Shown here one piece after another: positions 51,502-59,289 of a stretch of 64,000 nucleotides of DNA. This DNA is from Parcubacteria group bacterium (GTDB taxonomy: Bacteria; Patescibacteriota; Minisyncoccia; Phycocordibacterales; UBA2100). The notes below the pieces were generated by a model. That model did no database searches. It was not told the origin of the DNA and was given only the letters and a program-made list of their open reading frames with translations. The position numbers and the translations under genes are program-made. The stretch covers positions 2,380-66,379 of the forward strand of contig CALRGX010000001.1 in NCBI GenBank assembly GCA_943358385.1. Reading direction: 5' to 3'. The stretch's first letter is position 1; each line of letters starts with the position of its first letter.

Positions 51502-53169
51502 ATGGTGTTGCCTGATTTCATTACGAAGCTCTTGGACGAGCGGGGTGTCATAACAGATAACGATAAGACTGCCTTTCTTTCGCCAGATTTCCTGCAAGGG
51601 ACACACGGTGCGTTTCTCTTGGCGGACATTCGTGCCGCAGCACTACGCGTAGTAGAAGCGTGTGAACGAAAAGAAAAAATTGCCATCTATGCTGATTTTG
51701 ATGCTGACGGTATCCCCGGGGCGGTCATCCTCCATGATTTCTTTACTAAAATTGGCGTACAGCCCATTGTATACATTCCGCATCGGCACAATGAGGGATA
51801 TGGTCTCCATCCTGCGGCAATTGAAAAACTGCACGAACAAGGCGTCACGCTACTTATTACAGTAGACGTAGGCATCAGTGGCCACGAGGGGGCACGACGC
51901 GCGCAAGCGTTGGGTATCGACCTCTTAATCACCGATCATCACGAACTGCCTGCAGAACTTCCTGCGGCGTATGCCATTGTGCATCCGCGGCTCATCTCTG
52001 AAGAAACAAAGGCGCAGTATCCCTTCGTACATTTATGTGGTGCCGCGGTTGCGTTCAAGCTGGTACAGGCGACACTCGCTGTTGGCAGAGAGCAGAAAAT
52101 TTCTACATATCTCGCTGTACCAGAAGGGTGGGAGAAATGGCTCTTGGATATGGTAGGGATTGCGACACTCTCCGACATGGTGCCCTTGAAAGGAGAGAAT
52201 CGTGTGCTCGCCAGTTTCGGTCTGATGGTCTTGCGTAAATCACCACGTAAAGGGCTGAAAGCACTCTGTAAGAAAAATCGTATAGACCAGCGATCACTCA
52301 CCGAAGAGGATATAGGATTTACCATCACGCCGCGTATTAATGCTGCCTCGAGAATGGATGAGCCTGAGTTGGCCTTTCGCCTACTCGCGACCCAAGACAT
52401 GGAGGAAGCTGAACTGCTAGCAGCAACATTGGAGAAGTTAAACACTAAACGCAAAGGGGCCGTTGCATCGGTAGTCAAAATAGCCCGGGCAAAAGTGCTC
52501 GAAAGGCACCCTGATGATTTTGTGGCAGTGGTAGGAGACCCTTCGTGGAAACCAGCTCTCCTTGGTCTTGCGGCCAACTCGCTACTCGACGGACGCAAGG
52601 GGGTGGTGTGTCTCTGGGGAAGAGACGGTACCGGGATGTTGAAAGGGTCGTGTCGTTCTGATGGGAGCGTGCATGTGACCGAGATGTTCGCTGCCGCCGG
52701 TGTAGCGTTAGAAGAATCTGGTGGACACGCTTGTGCCGGCGGCTTTTCAGTGTCCTTGGATGAAGTACACACACTTCATACGCATTTTTCTCGGGTGGCA
52801 CGCACGGTACCTGCCGCGCCGGCAACCGTATCCGTGCCACACGCTATTCATCCGCGCGAGCTGACCTATGCATTGTATGAGTCACTGCGCATTCTTGCTC
52901 CCTTTGGGGTGGGGAATGAGAAGCCGCAGCTTGAGCTCCCAGACGTATTAATAGAGGAGGTACGCATTTTCGGGAAGGAGGGAAATCATACAGAGATTAT
53001 CGTATCAAAAGATGGCTACCGTATTCGCGCCTTCCAATTTTTTAAGACGCCTGATGATTTCACCAAGTTGCCCACTGTAGGTGAGACGTGCACTTTGCGG
53101 GGCTCAGTCGAGCGGGACCAGTTTAAAGGGATACGCAAAGTTGCGCTACGCACAGTGGACGTACGCTGA
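51502..53169 (+). CDS. recJ: single-stranded-DNA-specific exonuclease RecJ
   Basis: DHH motifs (IYADFDADGI, TDHH) and a DHHA1 domain. Confidence 0.85.
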   Translation: MVLPDFITKLLDERGVITDNDKTAFLSPDFLQGTHGAFLLADIRAAALRVVEACERKEKIAIYADFDADGIPGAVILHDFFTKIGVQPIVYIPHRHNEGYGLHPAAIEKLHEQGVTLLITVDVGISGHEGARRAQALGIDLLITDHHELPAELPAAYAIVHPRLISEETKAQYPFVHLCGAAVAFKLVQATLAVGREQKISTYLAVPEGWEKWLLDMVGIATLSDMVPLKGENRVLASFGLMVLRKSPRKGLKALCKKNRIDQRSLTEEDIGFTITPRINAASRMDEPELAFRLLATQDMEEAELLAATLEKLNTKRKGAVASVVKIARAKVLERHPDDFVAVVGDPSWKPALLGLAANSLLDGRKGVVCLWGRDGTGMLKGSCRSDGSVHVTEMFAAAGVALEESGGHACAGGFSVSLDEVHTLHTHFSRVARTVPAAPATVSVPHAIHPRELTYALYESLRILAPFGVGNEKPQLELPDVLIEEVRIFGKEGNHTEIIVSKDGYRIRAFQFFKTPDDFTKLPTVGETCTLRGSVERDQFKGIRKVALRTVDVR

Positions 53170-53198
53170 GGCACTCTGCGGTGGTACACTGTGCGCAT

Positions 53199-53819
53199 AT
53201 GAAAGACCTCACTATAAAAGCACTGTTTACGTGGGCGTGGGAGAAATTTACTCAGCGACCGTGGGCGTTTATTGGCCTGTTTGCCGGAGCACTCATTGTC
53301 TCAGGCATCTCCTCAGCAATCCTCAGTTCTGCTGAGGGTGTGGCCGGGCTCTACCAGCTCCTGTGGTTGGGTGACTATGCTGTGCAAACGCTTGTGTCGA
53401 TGGGGATCATGGCAATCGGCCTCAAAGCCTACAAAGACACGGCTCATCTATCAATTCACGATTTGTGGCATCCGAAACGATTCGTCCCGTATCTTTTTGC
53501 GACACTGCTGACTGGCATTACGGTGATCGTGGGCCTGGTGCTCTTGATTGTACCTGGACTTGTTGCCATGACGATGTTTATGTTTGCTCCGTACCTCGTT
53601 CTTGATAAGGGCATGAGCCCAGTTGACGCTATGAAGCACAGCATGAAGATGACAGAAGGGCATCGCATGTCGTTGTTTGTTTTTCTCCTCGCCATGATCG
53701 GTATCAACATACTCGGTGCACTTCTCATTGGTGTCGGGCTTCTGGTTTCGGTACCGGTGTCCCTCTTGGCAACAGTGCGTGCGTATCGCTTGCTTGAAGC
53801 GATGCCAAAGTCTGCATAG
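53199..53819 (+). CDS. hypothetical polytopic membrane protein
   Basis: Five to six predicted TM helices. Resembles DUF975-type membrane proteins (weak). Confidence 0.45.
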   Translation: MKDLTIKALFTWAWEKFTQRPWAFIGLFAGALIVSGISSAILSSAEGVAGLYQLLWLGDYAVQTLVSMGIMAIGLKAYKDTAHLSIHDLWHPKRFVPYLFATLLTGITVIVGLVLLIVPGLVAMTMFMFAPYLVLDKGMSPVDAMKHSMKMTEGHRMSLFVFLLAMIGINILGALLIGVGLLVSVPVSLLATVRAYRLLEAMPKSA

Positions 53820-53820
53820 C

Positions 53821-54237
53821 ATGGGAGTGGTCGTGTTTTCAGATGGTGGTGCGCGCAATAATCCCGGGCCTTCTGGCATCGGGGTTGTTGTATATAAAGA
53901 CGACCAGAAAGTTCTCGAGCTCGCCGAGTACTTGGGGGAGCAAACAAACAACTGGGCTGAATATCAAGGAGTCATTCGCGGTTTGGAAAAGTTGATTGAG
54001 CAAGGCTTGCAAGAAGAGCAAGTGGAAGTCCGCATGGACAGCAAGTTGGTCATTGAGCAGTTGCTCGGACACTGGAAGATTAAAGAGCTCGGTCTTCAAG
54101 AGCAGGCGCGGCGCGCGAAGATACTGATGCAATCATTTCCTGCACTCGATTTTACGCATATTCCGAGAGAAAAAAATAAAGAAGCCGACCTGCTCGCGAA
54201 CGCGGCAATGGATCAGGGGATGGGCATACAGGTGTAA
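53821..54237 (+). CDS. rnhA: ribonuclease HI
   Basis: VFSDGGARNNPGPSGIGVVV (Asp), NNWAEYQG (Glu), and the MDSKLV and KNKEADLLAN (Asp) motifs. Starts 2 nt after the previous stop. Confidence 0.85.
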   Translation: MGVVVFSDGGARNNPGPSGIGVVVYKDDQKVLELAEYLGEQTNNWAEYQGVIRGLEKLIEQGLQEEQVEVRMDSKLVIEQLLGHWKIKELGLQEQARRAKILMQSFPALDFTHIPREKNKEADLLANAAMDQGMGIQV

Positions 54238-54296
54238 AGTGTAGGCTTTTCGTATACCATTGCCACATTACTTGAGTATGTAGCTACCTATATATT

Positions 54297-54614
54297 ATGC
54301 CTACAACAGTTGCGCCAGGAGGTTTTGCAGGGTTCATGCAATTTATCCGAGAACAGGGTGTCGTTGGTCTTGCGGTCGGTTTTATTCTCGGGGGCGCAGT
54401 ATCAAAGGTTGTGTCTGCATTAGTGAACGACATTGTGAACCCACTTCTCGGCGCGGTTCTTGGGTCAACTGAAGGTTTGAAGGCGATGAAGCTTGGTCCC
54501 GTACTTTTGGGAGATTTCGTTTCAGTTGCTATTGATTTCATCATCATTGCGGCAGTGGTCTACTTTGTAGTGAAAGGGCTTGGGTTAGACAAGATGGACG
54601 TGAAGAAGACGTAG
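54297..54614 (+). CDS. mscL: large-conductance mechanosensitive channel
   Basis: GFMQFIREQGVVGLAVGFILGGAVSKVVSALVNDIVNPLL matches the MscL TM1 consensus. Confidence 0.8.
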   Translation: MPTTVAPGGFAGFMQFIREQGVVGLAVGFILGGAVSKVVSALVNDIVNPLLGAVLGSTEGLKAMKLGPVLLGDFVSVAIDFIIIAAVVYFVVKGLGLDKMDVKKT

Positions 54615-54629
54615 ATTTCAGTTTGTTTC

Positions 54630-54657
54630 AAACAGCGGCCTATATAGGCCGCTGTTT
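54630..54657 (+). terminator. terminator hairpin
   Basis: aaacagcggcc-tatata-ggccgctgttt. Confidence 0.65.
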
Positions 54658-54720
54658 GCTTCCGCGCTTTGGTCCATGGTATATGAAAAGTAGCTACTCT
54701 TTAGCAGAAAAGGAAAGGTG

Positions 54721-55287
54721 ATGTCACAGGCTAGCCTAGAAGAAGTGGCAGAGCGCTATGCGCGCTTCTGCCAGATGCTCGTACCACCACGCTTTGGTGC
54801 AGAACGGTACACGGGAGCTTTTGCCGAGTTTGAAGAACTCTGCAGGCATCCATTAGTGGCAGGATGTTCAATCTCCGAAAGAGCCGTGCACATCGGGACA
54901 GAGTTTTTAACGGGTACGGCAGGCGGGGATGTGTATGACATTGGGGAATTCATCCTCACTGTTTCAAAGGATGCGGTCACCTGGGAGAACATAACAAAAA
55001 CTTCAGGTTCGCATCATGCACCATGTATAAGTTCTGCCAAAGTACTATGCGGCGATCCAGAATTGAACAACAGAATACGGCACGCGCTAAAAGATGGGCT
55101 CCTGCATGAAGTATTTTTCAACATGATCGACGCTGCTCAGCGAGATGGTTATCTTGCGCCTCTCGCGAAATCCTGGCCCAAAAGTTCGCGGCCGCATGTT
55201 TCCGCGTTATCACCCAAACGGGTGATAGTCGCGACACCTGTGGAAAAGCAAGTGAAACCGTTGTTTACCTGGAGGTTGTGGAAATGA
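54721..55287 (+). CDS. hypothetical protein; candidate UBC/E2-like fold partner of the downstream E1-like enzyme
   Basis: Predicted secondary-structure order: helix, four-strand meander, then SGSHHAPCISSAKVLCGD (an HPN-like flap plus a Cys in an LCGD context), then two helices. The stop overlaps the next gene's ATG (ATGA). Confidence 0.45.
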   Translation: MSQASLEEVAERYARFCQMLVPPRFGAERYTGAFAEFEELCRHPLVAGCSISERAVHIGTEFLTGTAGGDVYDIGEFILTVSKDAVTWENITKTSGSHHAPCISSAKVLCGDPELNNRIRHALKDGLLHEVFFNMIDAAQRDGYLAPLAKSWPKSSRPHVSALSPKRVIVATPVEKQVKPLFTWRLWK

Positions 55288-55964
55288 ACTTCTCGCGTCA
55301 AGAATCACGATTCAATCCTGCACAGTTTGCGCTCAAAGTTGCCGTTATTGGACTTGGAGGAGTTGGTGGCGACGTGGTGTACGAACTGGTAAAGCATGGA
55401 GTCAGTGGAGTTGTGGGGTTCGACCACGATACGGTTGCACCAGAGAATCCACCGGGGCAGCTCTATCGAGTTCGCGACGCAGGTCAACAGAAGGCAACGG
55501 TCTTGCGAGATATAGTCGTTGAGTTTGCAGACGGCGAATTCACCGGTTTTGCTCACAAGGTCATCGAAGAGTTGCCTGAAGCGGACGTGCTGTTTCTGTG
55601 TGTAGACGACATGGGTGCCCGAAAGAGCATTATGCACGCTGCTTTTCGGTCGACGGGTGTCAGATTGGTAATTGAAACACGGGTCGACGCTGACTCGGTC
55701 GTGGTGTTCACCGTCATCCCTCAAAATGTTGAACATCAAGAGTTATGGGATCACTATTGGTTTCCCAATGAAGAGGCTGAGAATAATGGCGGATGTTCAG
55801 TCCCCACGTCACTTGGGGTTACGTCATCTATCGCTGCGCAGATAGCAGTCAATCAGCTCTTCAACTGGTTCGGAAACGGCGAGAAGGATCTTGCACTTGT
55901 TAGTGACCATCACATTGTGGTCACCTTGCGACCCCAATTCACGGCGCGCGCTGCCACGTGGTGA
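55284..55964 (+). CDS. ThiF/MoeB/HesA-family E1-like adenylyltransferase (short form)
   Basis: Rossmann motif VAVIGLGGVGG, a block (VDDMGARKSIMHAAF) aligned to the ThiF-family Arg-finger region, and C-terminal GGCSVPTSLG. GGAGG 8 nt upstream of the ATG. Confidence 0.7.
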   Translation: MNFSRQESRFNPAQFALKVAVIGLGGVGGDVVYELVKHGVSGVVGFDHDTVAPENPPGQLYRVRDAGQQKATVLRDIVVEFADGEFTGFAHKVIEELPEADVLFLCVDDMGARKSIMHAAFRSTGVRLVIETRVDADSVVVFTVIPQNVEHQELWDHYWFPNEEAENNGGCSVPTSLGVTSSIAAQIAVNQLFNWFGNGEKDLALVSDHHIVVTLRPQFTARAATW

Positions 55965-56086
55965 CGGAGATCGCATCGTGTTTGACAACATCATGTCACT
56001 CGGTATGCTGGAAACAGCCTGCTGTACATCCATGGTGTCTACGCGCAGGTACTCGACAACCGTAGACATACAGAAGGAGCAAGAAC

Positions 56087-56237
56087 ATGGCACGAATGAC
56101 GGAAAAACTCGAATCGCTCGGCCACGCCGTGGCCTTGTCTGACAAAGTTTCCATCGTTGCCGTTGTTTCATCTCAAGGCAGTGTCCCGACGGCCGATGCG
56201 AAGCTTCAGATTTCGCCGAAGGTTTCGTCGAGCTGAC
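56087..56237 (+). CDS. possible small protein (49 aa) downstream of the E1-like gene
   Basis: AGGAG 8 nt upstream of the ATG. Sequence MARMTEKLESLGHAVALSDKVSIVAVVSSQGSVPTADAKLQISPKVSSS. A 12-bp hairpin follows at 56258-56284. Confidence 0.35.
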
Positions 56238-56310
56238 GTTCGCCGGCAGACGATCCGCAGCCTCCTTCATTGAAGGAGGCTGCACTCATTTCCCTTGCTA
56301 CCATTTCGGT

Positions 56311-57807
56311 ATGCAGGGGCATGTTTTTTACTCAGGAGTTGCAGCTTTTTTAGTGGCAACGGCGATAGCGCTTGTGGTTCCTTTGGGTTGGTGGGAGATT
56401 GCGTGGATGGTGATGATCGGCAGTGTACTTGGTGTGGCTGCTTGGGCTATGCGTGTGCCGTACACGATGTCGCTCGTGGTTACTATCAGTTTGTGTGCAC
56501 TCGCGTGGGTGCGGGTAGCATTGCTGCCGCCAATTACACATCCGGAAATCGATGCGTTCCTCGGGCAAAAAGTGCATCTCACGGGAGAGTTGCGCGATGA
56601 GGTTGATGAACGCGAAGCAAACGCGCGATTGGCGATTCGTGTCACGCACATTGATGGAGTGGATGTGGCGCATATACAGCCGGTGCATGTTCTAGCTCTT
56701 GTTGCGCCACATCCTACAGTATCCTACGGGGACACGGTGGTAGTTGAAGGAACTCTCAAAAAGCCAGAGACATTTGAAACTGATGCAGGCCGCACATTTG
56801 ATTATCCGCAGTATCTTGCAGTGGAAGGTATTGGTTACACAATGTCATTCGGTCACATCGTGAAAACGGAAGACGGGGGTACGTCATTTCGCCGCATTCT
56901 TTTTTCAATAAAGGACCATTATCTTGATGGTATTGGGCAGACATTAGTCGAACCATATGCGGCACTCGCTGGTGGGCTCACGGTGGGTGACAAGCGCGCG
57001 CTCGGCGGAGAACTCCTTGATACGTTTCGCGATGCAGGCATCGTACACATTGTGGTACTGTCGGGTTTCAATATCACCATCATCATTGCGTTTCTTTTAG
57101 GCTGGATGAGGAACTTAAGCAAAAAAGTGCAATTGATGGTAGGAACTTTGGTCATCGTTGCGTTTGTTTTGATGACAGGAGCGTCTGCAACAGGTGTGCG
57201 TGCAGGCATTATGGCTACACTTGCGCTTTTGGCGACCGCACTCACGCGCCAGTACGCCATTATGCGCGCACTGGCGATAGCGGCCGCCGTGATGGTGCTA
57301 TGGAATCCGCGCATTCTTTTGTACGATCCTGGGTTTCAATTGTCAGTGGTTGCAACGATTGGATTAGTGACGGTGGCGCCTCGTATTGCCAAGCGTTTCC
57401 TATGGCTCACGGAGCGCTTTGGTCTGCGTGAGATTGTGGCGAGCACTATTGGTACGCAGATTGCCGTCTTGCCACTCCTCGTCTACCTCATTGGCGAAAT
57501 ATCACTTGTTGCGCTTCCAGCAAACCTGCTCGTCCTTCCTACGGTGCCGTTTGCCATGCTTCTTGCATCAGTTGCGGGGCTATACGGCATGATCGGCTTA
57601 CCATTCGCTGCCTTGATTGGGTATCCATCCTACTTATTGCTCGCGTGGATTGTATGTGTTGCTGAATGGGCTGCTGCAATGCCATTAGGTACAGTAGTTG
57701 TTCCCGCACTCCCATTGTGGATGGTGGGTAGTATGTATGCGGTCGCGTGCCTCTGGTTGATTATGCGGCCAAGCGACTCTCCACAACACTCCAATTCAGG
57801 TTCTTGA
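56311..57807 (+). CDS. comEC: ComEC/Rec2 DNA-uptake channel (DUF4131 + competence domain; no MBL domain in this gene)
   Basis: Many TM helices and the competence-domain block VHIVVLSGFNITIIIAFL. Confidence 0.8.
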   Translation: MQGHVFYSGVAAFLVATAIALVVPLGWWEIAWMVMIGSVLGVAAWAMRVPYTMSLVVTISLCALAWVRVALLPPITHPEIDAFLGQKVHLTGELRDEVDEREANARLAIRVTHIDGVDVAHIQPVHVLALVAPHPTVSYGDTVVVEGTLKKPETFETDAGRTFDYPQYLAVEGIGYTMSFGHIVKTEDGGTSFRRILFSIKDHYLDGIGQTLVEPYAALAGGLTVGDKRALGGELLDTFRDAGIVHIVVLSGFNITIIIAFLLGWMRNLSKKVQLMVGTLVIVAFVLMTGASATGVRAGIMATLALLATALTRQYAIMRALAIAAAVMVLWNPRILLYDPGFQLSVVATIGLVTVAPRIAKRFLWLTERFGLREIVASTIGTQIAVLPLLVYLIGEISLVALPANLLVLPTVPFAMLLASVAGLYGMIGLPFAALIGYPSYLLLAWIVCVAEWAAAMPLGTVVVPALPLWMVGSMYAVACLWLIMRPSDSPQHSNSGS

Positions 57808-58348
57808 AAAATGCATCCACATACTTGGCTTTTCCTGCAGCGCCATAGTCCAAAAGGTACGCATGCTCCCAAACATCAAGCGCGATGATGATGGGGAGTG
57901 TAGCAAAATGTCCTTGGTGCTGTTCTCCTGAGAAACCAAGATGAAACATTTTTTCCTGAGGGTCGAAGTAGAGGTTTGCCCATCCCGGGCCACGCATCAG
58001 CGCCACTCCTTTCATGTGCTGTACGAGCACCTCGACACTGCCAAACTGGAGGGTGAGTGCTTTTGAAAGCGAGCTCTCTGCGCTAAAAGGGCTGGCGCCG
58101 CCTTCCAATTGCGCAAAATACAGCTCGTGCAAACGCATGCCACCAAATTCAAACGAACGGCGGCGGATGATTTCGGAAAGTGCATGTGCATTTTTTTCTG
58201 AATCTACCGCCAGCTCAGTAATCAATCCACTCATCGCGTTGAAATTTTTTACATACCCAAGGTACAGGCCGAGGTGCTCTTCGATAGAGCGTGCAGAGAT
58301 GCCTTCTAGGGTGGGAATGATAAACGTTTTTGCTTCGTAGGTATGCAT
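57761..58348 (-). CDS. Fe/Mn-family superoxide dismutase
   Basis: ALDVWEHAYLLDY C-terminal signature and HxxxH in the N-terminal domain. Start set at MHTYEAK. The 3' end overlaps the comEC 3' end by ~47 nt. Confidence 0.85.
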   Translation of the reverse strand: MHTYEAKTFIIPTLEGISARSIEEHLGLYLGYVKNFNAMSGLITELAVDSEKNAHALSEIIRRRSFEFGGMRLHELYFAQLEGGASPFSAESSLSKALTLQFGSVEVLVQHMKGVALMRGPGWANLYFDPQEKMFHLGFSGEQHQGHFATLPIIIALDVWEHAYLLDYGAAGKAKYVDAFFKNLNWSVVESRLAA

Positions 58349-58428
58349 ACACAATAGATTAGAGATTAAAATGGAAGAATCAAAGATTACACACTCACAG
58401 TATAGCAAAGCGTCGTATACTAGAATGT

Positions 58429-59289
58429 ATGAAGAGAAGTGCGATCCTGTGGGGCGTGCTCCTGCTCTTGGTCGTCATGACGATGGGGGTCTGGGGCGCA
58501 GTCGTAGAGCTTTCGCGACCCGGGCAACTAAGGGTCACCTTCCTCAATGTCGGCCAAGGTGATGCCATCCTCATTGAGTCTCCTACGCGCAGGCAGGTAC
58601 TTATTGACGGCGGGCGCGACCGAGCAGTATTGCGTGAGTTGGGGGCAGTGATGCCATGGTGGGATCGAAGCATTGATGTGGTGATTGCGACACATCCCGA
58701 TGCAGACCATGTAGGTGGGCTGTTTGAAGTGCTCGCTCGCTATGAAGTGCAGACCATTTTCCAAAGTGGGGTACAAAATGACACGCTGCAGACCGAATCT
58801 TTACTTTCTGCAGTCTCTCGCGAGCGCAGTAATGGGGCAGAAGAGCGCTTGGCGCGGCGTGGGCAGATTATTGATATAGGTGGGGGTGCGTACATACAGA
58901 TTCTTTTTCCCGATAGGGATGTGTCTGGGCTTGAAACAAATACGGCGTCAATTGTTATGCGTGTTGTGTATGGAGACACTGCCTTTTTGCTGAACGGAGA
59001 CTCTCCGAAGACTATCGAAGAGTATCTCGTGCTCTTGGACGGGGTGCATTTAAAATCAAACGTACTCAAGGCAGGGCACCACGGGTCAGATACCTCGTCT
59101 GCCATTTCTTTTGTGGGGTATGTATCACCCGAGTGGGCTGTGTTTTCCCGAGGTTGTGACAATACCTATGGCCATCCGCACCAAGAGGTGGTTGACCTTA
59201 TGAAGCGCTTTGAAATTGCAACCAAAGATACTTGCCTGGACGGGCGCGTATCCTTTACGTCGGACGGGAAGTCGGTGCTTGCTAAATAG
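58429..59289 (+). CDS. membrane-anchored metallo-beta-lactamase-fold protein (ComEC C-terminal-domain-like)
   Basis: N-terminal anchor, then HPDADHVGG (HxHxDH), NGDSPK and KAGHHGSDTS motifs typical of the ComEC MBL domain. Confidence 0.75.
   Translation: MKRSAILWGVLLLLVVMTMGVWGAVVELSRPGQLRVTFLNVGQGDAILIESPTRRQVLIDGGRDRAVLRELGAVMPWWDRSIDVVIATHPDADHVGGLFEVLARYEVQTIFQSGVQNDTLQTESLLSAVSRERSNGAEERLARRGQIIDIGGGAYIQILFPDRDVSGLETNTASIVMRVVYGDTAFLLNGDSPKTIEEYLVLLDGVHLKSNVLKAGHHGSDTSSAISFVGYVSPEWAVFSRGCDNTYGHPHQEVVDLMKRFEIATKDTCLDGRVSFTSDGKSVLAK

Follow-up and report, generated by a model that had tools for sequence, protein, structure and literature searches.

The question raised by this locus is whether a bacterial chromosome can encode a ubiquitin-type conjugation system that works on a short peptide in place of a ubiquitin-like protein. 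Three small adjacent genes, here called A, B and C, lie between mscL and comEC in a 64,000-nt stretch of the genome of a Parcubacteria group bacterium (GCA_943358385.1, contig CALRGX010000001.1), which as a whole is referred to as the window. An initial annotation of the window had taken genes A and B for a translationally coupled pair, one resembling a ubiquitin-conjugating (E2) enzyme and the other a ubiquitin-activating (E1) enzyme of the ThiF type, and had treated the third open reading frame (ORF) as an appendage to them. We propose, with a probability of about 0.5, that the three genes form a ubiquitination-like peptide-conjugation cassette, in which an E1-E2 relay acts on the C-terminus of the peptide encoded by gene C. 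Related loci are labelled L001-L017, and residue numbers are those of the window proteins.

Gene A (54721..55287, + strand) encodes a protein of 188 amino acids (aa) when read from the ATG at 54721 to the stop codon at 55285-55287. The 189 aa of the initial annotation are obtained solely if the GTG at 54718 is the start, and the 228 aa that it gave for gene B likewise assume a GTG at 55278, where the ATG yields 226 aa; both genes are real, and only their lengths need correction. The absence of an obvious family for the first protein was confirmed, as gene A has no match in Pfam (E<=1), NCBIfam, PADLOC or PHROGs. Its relatives were collected by an exhaustive hidden Markov model (HMM) search of 1.84 billion cluster representatives at E<=1e-3, which recovered 112 remote homologues and resulted in an alignment of 114 sequences; word-indexed homologue searches with gene A returned merely 2-6 relatives, a scan of genome contigs found one locus, and scans of metagenome contigs found nothing additional. 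Even at the level of the family, Pfam models (including UQ_con, Prok-E2_A-E, RWD and UEV) matched 0/114 members at E<=0.01, and the PADLOC E2 models gave one marginal match (0.009) among the members and none to gene A of the window itself. The near-invariant positions of the family are G75, N90, P101, C110, W152 and P153, with Cys110 (codon 55048-55050) and Pro101 each kept in 112/114 members, and the consensus reads ...IGEF.I.I...N.TR...H-[HA]-P-H-[VI]-x3-G-x2-C...WP.

What such a family may be was addressed by profile comparison. The domain alignment of the family (93 sequences; profiles 93-114) was compared by hhalign with 14 canonical UBC E2s, whose profile was verified as E2 against the PDB. 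The two profiles matched with a probability of 93.7% (P 2e-7, 111 columns) and, in a second run, of 87.6% (E 3.5e-6), the matches spanning 105-111 columns, while the controls (the reversed alignment, 30 column-shuffled alignments and a ThiF alignment) all remained below 1% probability, with scores <=16 vs 48. Both alignments run from helix alpha1 to helix alpha2, placing UBC alpha1 on the EFD.L helix and the segment 'GG.F.l.i' on IGEF.I.I. The register sets 'hHPHV...G..C' of the family on 'HPNI...G.IC' of the UBC enzymes, and Cys110 is aligned to Cys85 of UBE2D1 and Cys86 of UbcH7, which are E2 catalytic cysteines. When the family profile was run by hmmsearch against 177,635 distinct PDB sequences, the 14 best matches were all E2 enzymes, individually sub-significant, led by UBE2L3 (0.022) and followed by UBE2A and UBE2W (2mt6). 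With clean controls to the profile matches, and with this PDB search, we treat UBC homology as supported by sequence profiles; gene A thus appears to be a remote homologue of UBC E2s whose near-invariant Cys aligns with the catalytic Cys. The initial annotation had guessed as much from the order of the predicted secondary structure elements and the spacing between His and Cys, and the profiles bear this guess out.

An AlphaFold2 (AF2) model of gene A built from the 114-sequence alignment reached a predicted local distance difference test score (pLDDT) of 87.5 and a predicted template modelling score (pTM) of 0.82, and replaced an earlier, poor model from 5 sequences (pLDDT 65). In this model two helices at the N-terminus precede a beta-meander (46-90); H99, P101 and C110 sit in the loop that comes next (91-112), and three helices follow, the first of them (113-124) directly after that loop. 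Five or six beta-strand segments can be counted in the model. Uncharacterised proteins with lengths of 300-1022 aa also carry the same E2-like domain C-terminally, at times in two copies. These long proteins, which include P0031, P0036, P0040, P0047-P0050, P0103 and P0117 and one from a Planktothrix metagenome-assembled genome, keep the Cys and a 'MHAPHV' motif, and they had no match in viral contigs, in GenBank phages (tblastn) or in PHROGs.

The partner of gene A is easier to name. Gene B (55284..55964, + strand; ATG at 55284, stop codon at 55962-55964) matches the Pfam ThiF model PF00899 with 56.8 bits (E 2.3e-15; cut-off 28.1) over residues 17-196 of 226, in agreement with the compact ThiF/MoeB-type adenylation domain that had been assigned to it, and the motifs quoted for the two proteins (VAVIGLGGVGG, VDDMGARKSIMHAAF, GGCSVPTSLG and SGSHHAPCISSAKVLCGD) are all present in the translations. 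Its conserved residues comprise the Rossmann GLGGVGG (22-28), D47, N55, Q59, K70, D107/D108 and R113; among these the GxGxxG loop, D47, Q59, K70 and D108 line up with the G-loop, D59, Q71, K83 and D127 of E. coli ThiF (1zud), and the conserved nucleotide- and Mg2+-binding residues also align with UBA5. These alignments make gene B a member of the E1-like family in which the residues for nucleotide and Mg2+ binding are retained. A Gly-Cys pair, G170-C171, is invariant or near-invariant among 10 sequences, and Cys171 would be the equivalent of ThiF C184, or of the E1 catalytic Cys, by motif context, the HMM alignments to ThiF and UBA5 ending at profile position ~126. The Rossmann fold begins at residue ~17, and no RiPP recognition element (RRE; RiPP, a peptide made on the ribosome and modified after translation), peptide-clamp or rhodanese domain is present in the protein.

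Within the E1-like family, gene B shows no preference for any characterised branch. The best NCBIfam equivalog scores, in bits against the respective cut-off, are 43.4/159 for ThiF, 40.2/144.75 for PRTRC-ThiF, 20.7/304 for TcdA and 18.3/266 for MoeB. Since these fall far below the cut-offs, the orthology to TcdA or MoeB that the initial annotation had named as its alternative is not found, and by the same scores gene B stands outside ThiF, MoeB, TcdA, MoeZ and PRTRC ThiF orthology and in no known E1-like subfamily. When a profile of the gene-B family was searched against PDB sequences, UBA5, E. coli ThiF, Uba1, MccB, MoeB, TcdA, Uba4 and Cap2 all scored in a similar range (1e-13 to 1e-8); MccB was matched at 1e-11, PaaA at 6e-10 and Cap2 (7tsx), weakly, at 1e-8. 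The PADLOC E1-E2 models also give a weak match to the ThiF domain of gene B.

If genes A and B are an E2 and an E1, what do they conjugate? The answer may lie in the third gene. Gene C (56087..56236, + strand) encodes a peptide of 49 aa, MARMTEKLESLG...ISPKVSSS, whose tail P44-K-V-S-S-S49 lies at 56216-56233. Ten genomes are readable 3' of the ThiF gene (window, L001, L002, L003, L004, L005, L009/L010, L011/L012, L013/L014 and L017), and all ten have a small ORF of 47-60 aa on the same strand, 58-137 nt 3' of ThiF, which is intact in 9; this neighbourship persists at gene-A-homologue identities down to ~20%. The ORF once regarded as an appendage is thus a conserved third component. The peptides start with a semi-conserved motif, M-x-[KR]-[FML]-x-[DE]-[KR]-[LM]-A-x-x-G...V-D-V, continue through a variable, low-complexity middle rich in A/P/S/T, and end in their most conserved segment, P-[KR]-V-[SD]-[SLG]-[SG]. 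The tails read PKVSSS in the window, L001 and L004, PKVTSS in L002, PRVSSS in L003, PKVSGS in L009, RKVDLG in L012 and PRVSLG in L013. The codons of the tail vary: Ser appears as TCG, TCA, TCC, AGC or AGT, drawing on the TCN as well as the AGY family, and each of the four Val codons is used. An amino-acid tail kept across synonymous codons indicates conservation at the protein level. Between the window and L001, differences in the small ORF fall on codon positions 1/2/3 in the numbers 9/10/26.

Gene C is a true coding gene with a conserved C-terminus and a promoter-like motif, followed in the window by a probable terminator hairpin. It matches no Pfam, NCBIfam or PADLOC family and by length and composition it does not resemble a beta-grasp protein of 65-100 aa ending in Gly-Gly or Gly. 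The peptides contain no Cys, 0-2 aromatic residues and 40-64% A/P/S/T/G/Q, a composition that suggests a largely disordered chain. An alternative ORF at 55993-56142 was dropped as a gene, its frame being open just in the window and in its close relative L001.

The stop codon of gene A and the start codon of gene B overlap as ATGA (55284-55287), and a Shine-Dalgarno sequence for the ThiF gene, GGAGG (55271..55275, + strand), sits inside the 3' end of gene A, 8 nt before the ThiF ATG; both had been pointed out in the initial annotation, and together they imply translational coupling of genes A and B. The overlap or a near-abutment is kept in L001-L005, L008, L009, L012 and L013. In all related loci whose DNA continues 3' of the gene-A homologue, the ThiF gene overlaps or abuts it, with one E2-like paralogue interposed in L017, and every locus that extends beyond ThiF has the small ORF. 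Genes A, B and C are therefore found together wherever the DNA is readable, and the recurrence of ThiF and the small ORF in related loci shows that the arrangement is not a chance juxtaposition. In L017 (6001-9001; GCA_964534465.1), a variant cassette within the same synteny, three E2-like paralogues of 193, 198 and 203 aa surround one ThiF gene and one 51-aa ORF, as is typical of conjugation systems that have more than one E2. The 51-aa ORF keeps the N-terminal motif (MSRMEERLQALG...VDV) and ends ...GPKVGRIALEDTRILTAPGF; ComEC is not adjacent there. Loci with H-A-P-[C/Y] in the E2-like protein (window, L001-L004, L009) have peptides ending in Ser, and those with H-H-P-H or A-H-P-H (L012, L013) have peptides ending in Leu-Gly. 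The active-site motif and the peptide tail may thus co-vary, which is suggestive at most, given that two or three independent clades are involved.

In the mechanism that we propose, the ThiF/E1-like enzyme would bind ATP and adenylate the C-terminal carboxylate of the ~50-aa peptide (...PKVSSS, or ...VSLG/VDLG in relatives). The acyl group would then pass to Cys110 of the E2-like protein as a thioester, either directly from the adenylate or via Cys171 of the E1, and the E2-like protein would move the peptide onto an amine or another nucleophile of a target. The peptide would serve as a short, probably disordered tag in the place of a beta-grasp ubiquitin-like protein (Ubl). Gene C is the best candidate for the E1 substrate because its adjacency to the enzymes is invariant, because conservation is strongest at its extreme C-terminus, where a small residue (Ser or Gly) comes last as it does in E1 substrates, and because the type of E2 motif correlates with the end of the tail. 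We infer that gene C supplies the substrate, that thioester chemistry carries it and that a conjugate is the product, with a target and a biological role that are likewise presumptive. A broader proposal, to which we give somewhat less than an even chance, is that the cassette represents a vertically inherited, housekeeping 'ubiquitination without ubiquitin' in a lineage of the Candidate Phyla Radiation (CPR)/Patescibacteria, in which a disordered peptide of ~50 aa, with Ser or Gly as its last residue, is activated by a minimal E1 and attached to cellular targets by an unrecognised branch of UBC E2s, and jointly that this branch also forms one or two C-terminal domains of large uncharacterised proteins.

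Several observations weigh against the peptide-conjugation cassette. The link between peptide and enzymes is drawn from conserved adjacency and tail conservation, and we know of no precedent for a C-terminal Ser among E1 substrates. The tail itself has two exceptions. The peptide of L017 ends ...PKVGRIALEDTRILTAPGF; this may be a precursor that is processed, extended C-terminally past PKVG, or simply another tail. The second exception is L005, whose tail has lost the reading frame of L003 although the two are nearly identical: L005 4515-4680 and L003 1548-1700 share 93 identical nt, after which deletions of 1 nt and of 3 nt and a change of the stop TAG->CAG destroy PRVSSS; the L005 assembly has a coverage of 3.5x, and the damage is either an assembly error or a decaying copy. 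On the side of the enzymes, gene B has no Arg matching ThiF R70 in the alignment to 1zud, no Zn-binding CxxC pairs and no E2-recruiting UFD domain. Gene A of the window reads H99-A100-P101-C102-I-S and hence has neither the His nor the Asn of HPN; of the HPN-like position claimed in the initial annotation, the Pro and the spacing are kept. The majority of the family reads H-H-P-H where the clade of the window reads H-A-P-[C/Y], and 101/114 members carry His at the Asn position, as does UBE2W. A Foldseek search of the gene-A AF2 model against the PDB returned no match at E<=0.001; the E2/RWD folds recur as weak matches (7v8f at E 0.2; 6cp2_B with TM-scores of 0.34/0.40, the latter being the best for an E2; 4nf9), and the top rank is taken by a CorA N-domain at an insignificant E of 0.076. 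Against BFVD the same model gave weak matches to unnamed ~500-aa phage proteins. Finally, the locus contains no JAB or other deconjugating peptidase, E3 or target gene.

Three other explanations of the same genes have to be considered. It is unlikely, although the least improbable of the three, that genes A and B are a true conjugation pair with a substrate elsewhere (a beta-grasp Ubl, or the C-terminus of another protein as for CBASS Cap2 and its CD-NTase) and that the small ORF is unrelated, or a regulator or target. Such a substrate may have escaped notice, since the 64 kb viewed leave room for a Ubl elsewhere in the genome; furthermore the small ORF has its own promoter-like motif and a probable terminator and so would not be co-transcribed with A and B, the peptide tail is not Gly-Gly, and the tails of L017 and L005 deviate. 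On the other hand, an unrelated ORF would hardly stay next to ThiF in 10/10 genomes with E2 identity down to ~20%, be best conserved at an extreme C-terminus with a small final residue, and change its tail type along with the active-site motif of the E2; nor does the window offer a plausible ORF ending in GG as the substrate instead. The conservation of the peptide can also be read as that of a RiPP precursor, with a semi-conserved 'leader', a variable middle and a conserved 'core'. ThiF would then adenylate the peptide C-terminus, as MccB, IndF and similar enzymes do, for capture by an intramolecular or small nucleophile (cyclisation, amidation or thioacid formation), gene A would be a scaffold or carrier, and the product would be a free peptide. 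ThiF-like enzymes do modify peptide C-termini (PMC12596934), and MccB and PaaA are among the PDB matches of gene B, yet we consider this explanation improbable. The ThiF enzymes of RiPP pathways bear an N-terminal RRE/peptide-clamp (PMC12596934), whereas in gene B the Rossmann fold already begins at residue ~17, and neither a peptidase nor a transporter or immunity gene is found at the locus. RiPP clusters, moreover, do not employ a partner of the kind found here, a homologue of UBC enzymes whose Cys is conserved; the sole candidate internal nucleophile, the Lys at -5, is Arg in L003 and L013; and a vertically inherited block in reduced genomes differs from a sporadic biosynthetic cluster.

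Very little speaks for the third explanation, sulfur transfer or tRNA modification in the manner of MoeB, ThiF or TcdA, with gene A and the small ORF as unrelated neighbours. It draws on the generic similarity of the ThiF domain to ThiF, MoeB, TcdA and Uba4 (E 1e-13 to 1e-10), but UBA5, Uba1 and MccB score equal to ThiF, and the NCBIfam scores for ThiF (43/159), TcdA (21/304) and MoeB (18/266) are those of an outsider. A rhodanese domain, a CxxC zinc site and a nearby MoaD- or ThiS-like gene are all lacking, and at every locus translation of gene B is coupled to that of a UBC homologue, so that we regard this role as highly improbable.

The setting of the genes in the chromosome bears on the function of the proposed peptide-conjugation cassette. 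MscL (54297-54614) is its immediate upstream flank and ComEC (56311-57807) its immediate downstream flank, both identified by Pfam, as the initial annotation had stated. The wider flanks recognised by Pfam are RecJ, DUF975 and RNase H next to MscL upstream, and a gene resembling superoxide dismutase (SOD-like) and a gene with a metallo-beta-lactamase (MBL) fold next to ComEC downstream. The pairing of A and B and the entire block RecJ-DUF975-RNaseH-MscL-[A-B-C]-ComEC-...-SOD-like-MBL-L28-M50 recur in the genomes examined; relatives with the block include Candidatus Kaiserbacteria (GCA_002773285.1) and 'Patescibacteria group bacterium'. L003, L005 and L006 come from Hainich groundwater samples. 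The synteny from RecJ to ComEC holds even where the E2-like proteins share just 20-37% identity with that of the window, and it follows that the cassette is vertically inherited in the CPR/Patescibacteria lineage and is not a mobile defence island. The initial annotation had related it to defence cassettes; a vertically conserved chromosomal block is what is found instead, and this context suggests a housekeeping or regulatory role over phage defence. No JAB, other peptidase, E3 or beta-grasp gene was found in any locus examined, in line with the adjacent JAB or ubiquitin-like gene having been noted as absent, and the single small ORF ending in GG in the window was judged spurious. The metallo-beta-lactamase domain of ComEC, which is usually its C-terminal domain, is a separate gene here (58429-59289), divided from the Competence-domain gene by a Sod_Fe_C gene on the opposite strand, and the block spans 51502-59289.

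The boundaries of the cassette and the signals within it can also be described. Upstream, a 13-bp hairpin 3' of mscL (54629..54658, + strand; folded at -24.4 kcal/mol, z -3.8) is a probable terminator that sets the upstream boundary. Downstream, a perfect 12-bp hairpin (56257..56283, + strand; -26.5 kcal/mol, z -4.2) is a probable terminator that closes the cassette 27 nt before comEC; it had been seen in the initial annotation along with the 49-aa ORF and its strong Shine-Dalgarno sequence, which we locate as AAGGAG at 56074..56079 (+ strand), 7 nt before the ATG of gene C. In most loci a GC-rich hairpin also comes after the stop codon of the small ORF, and in L002, L003 and L009 it is trailed by a T-run (assessed by eye, with only the hairpin of the window folded). 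A promoter-like site of the sigma-70 type, TTGACA-16 nt-TATGCT (55982..56009, + strand; 10/12 matches), precedes gene C and it is the sole + strand promoter-like site within 1.8 kb of the window. In an alignment of the spacer from 8 loci, TTGAC and TA...T are invariant columns; checked locus by locus, TTGAC-16-TAnnnT occurs in 7/8, and L004 has CTATCC as its -10. The peptide gene thus appears to be transcribed on its own beside a translationally coupled enzyme pair, and with its own promoter-like motif and hairpin its expression is possibly uncoupled from that of the enzymes.

Further features of this region were recorded. The spacer from ThiF to the small ORF is nearly constant in length, at 112-137 nt, in the window (55965-56086), L002 (1391-1502), L003 (1421-1547), L004 (1540-1661) and L012 (6708-6823). 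In L002, L003, L004 and L012 the -35 TTGACA is enclosed as the loop between two GC-rich inverted arms, with a T-run behind them (e.g. GCCGGGC-TTTGACA-GCCCGGC-TTTTTC). It looks as if the promoter of the peptide gene overlapped a terminator that serves the enzyme operon; the stem in the window is weak (z +0.47). The ~70-nt 5' untranslated region (UTR) of the small ORF (window 56014-56086; L001-L004, L009, L013) contains a recurring stem, (G)ACCTG...CAGGT(C), which in L009 shows one compensatory change, and a second, interleaved stem reads GTCTACG...CGTAGAC in the window and GCCGC...GCGGC in L002-L004. RNAalifold gave one weak 6-bp stem with little covariation for this 5'UTR, the UTR of the window behaves like its shuffles (z -1.2), and Rfam has no RNA family within the cassette; we claim no structured RNA element here. 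Minus-strand ORFs of 78-153 aa (54736-54992, 55824-56285) overlap genes A, B and C, and the 153-aa frame is open in L001 as well; the most likely origin of these frames is codon bias in DNA of ~50% GC, and they are not taken for genes.

How does this peptide-conjugation cassette compare with known systems? Canonical UBC E2s share with gene A a profile homology of ~105-111 columns and the motif H-P-(N/H)-[IV]-x3-G-x2-C in the same register, and UBE2W also has HPH instead of HPN. Gene A differs from them in an identity of ~17-20%, an extra N-terminal helix (3-19), a C-terminal W-P motif, and strand segments numbering more than four in its AF2 model. The 112 cluster representatives thus define an unannotated E2-like family for which Pfam, NCBIfam, PADLOC and PHROG have no model. 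To our knowledge, every characterised E1/E2 system uses a beta-grasp modifier or, in the case of the cyclic-oligonucleotide-based antiphage signalling system (CBASS), the tail of an enzyme.

Prokaryotic E1/E2 operons have been divided into classes 6a-6e (Iyer et al. 2006; PMC1779556), whose characterised descendants are CBASS type II, Bil and Bub (PMC11601596). All three have a deconjugase of the JAB or serine-protease type and/or a beta-grasp modifier, none has a dedicated short peptide, and most of them are reported from antiphage contexts or as part of mobile elements. One likeness is to Cap2 of type II CBASS (class 6b, Iyer et al. 2006), which likewise joins an E1-like and a UBC-like part, acts on a flexible non-Ubl C-terminal tail and has no E3; this bacterial E1/E2 acts on a disordered, non-beta-grasp C-terminus (PMC11601596), and Cap2 thus sets a precedent for a bacterial E1/E2 whose substrate tail is not that of a Ubl. 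However, Cap2 is an E1-E2 fusion of ~600 aa that is found with the JAB protein Cap3 in mobile defence islands and has an enzyme, the CD-NTase, as substrate, whereas here the E1 and E2 are separate and minimal, no JAB is present, the candidate substrate is a ~50-aa peptide and the genes lie in a conserved chromosomal block; gene A also matches no PADLOC E2 model. Bil (class 6d) and Bub (class 6e) have beta-grasp Ubl modifiers, sometimes in tandem, and JAB or serine-protease deconjugases in the operon, and Bub forms oxyester intermediates without catalytic cysteines (PMC11601596). The gene-A family keeps a near-invariant Cys, and its cassettes have a non-Ubl peptide and no peptidase. The features that mark Bil, Bub, CBASS type II and 6A-MBL, namely a JAB or other peptidase and a mobile or defence-island context, were found at none of the loci. 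Among RiPP enzymes, MccB, PaaA, GrcB and IndF likewise place a ThiF-like domain beside a short ribosomal peptide with a reactive C-terminal region; they differ in having a fused RRE/peptide-clamp, peptidases and transporters, and no UBC-like partner (PMC12596934).

We found no description in the literature of such a peptide-using E1/E2 system in CPR/Patescibacteria. As the known systems have a deconjugase or a beta-grasp protein and none has a short peptide, the cassette is not placed in any of them: it combines E1/E2 machinery, its E2 from a new branch, with a candidate modifier that is no Ubl, and stands outside every named system. With proteins of just 188, 226 and 49 aa, the hypothesis is directly testable in vitro; the cassette could serve as a compact tool for C-terminal ligation, and, if our reading is true, it would add a post-translational system to the reduced and poorly understood genomes of the CPR.

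A functional parallel would come from outside the ubiquitin world. In pupylation, the C-terminal Glu of Pup (~50-64 aa) is ligated through its side chain by PafA, a glutamine-synthetase-like enzyme, and no E1 or E2 takes part. The Pup-PafA system of Actinobacteria, as generally known, likewise uses a small, low-complexity and probably disordered tag with a functional C-terminus, although Pup and gene C have no sequence similarity and belong to different phyla. If the proposed cassette is real, the E1/E2 relay would be separable from the ubiquitin fold, and the CPR/Patescibacteria would possess a functional parallel of Pup that is reached through ubiquitin-type chemistry.

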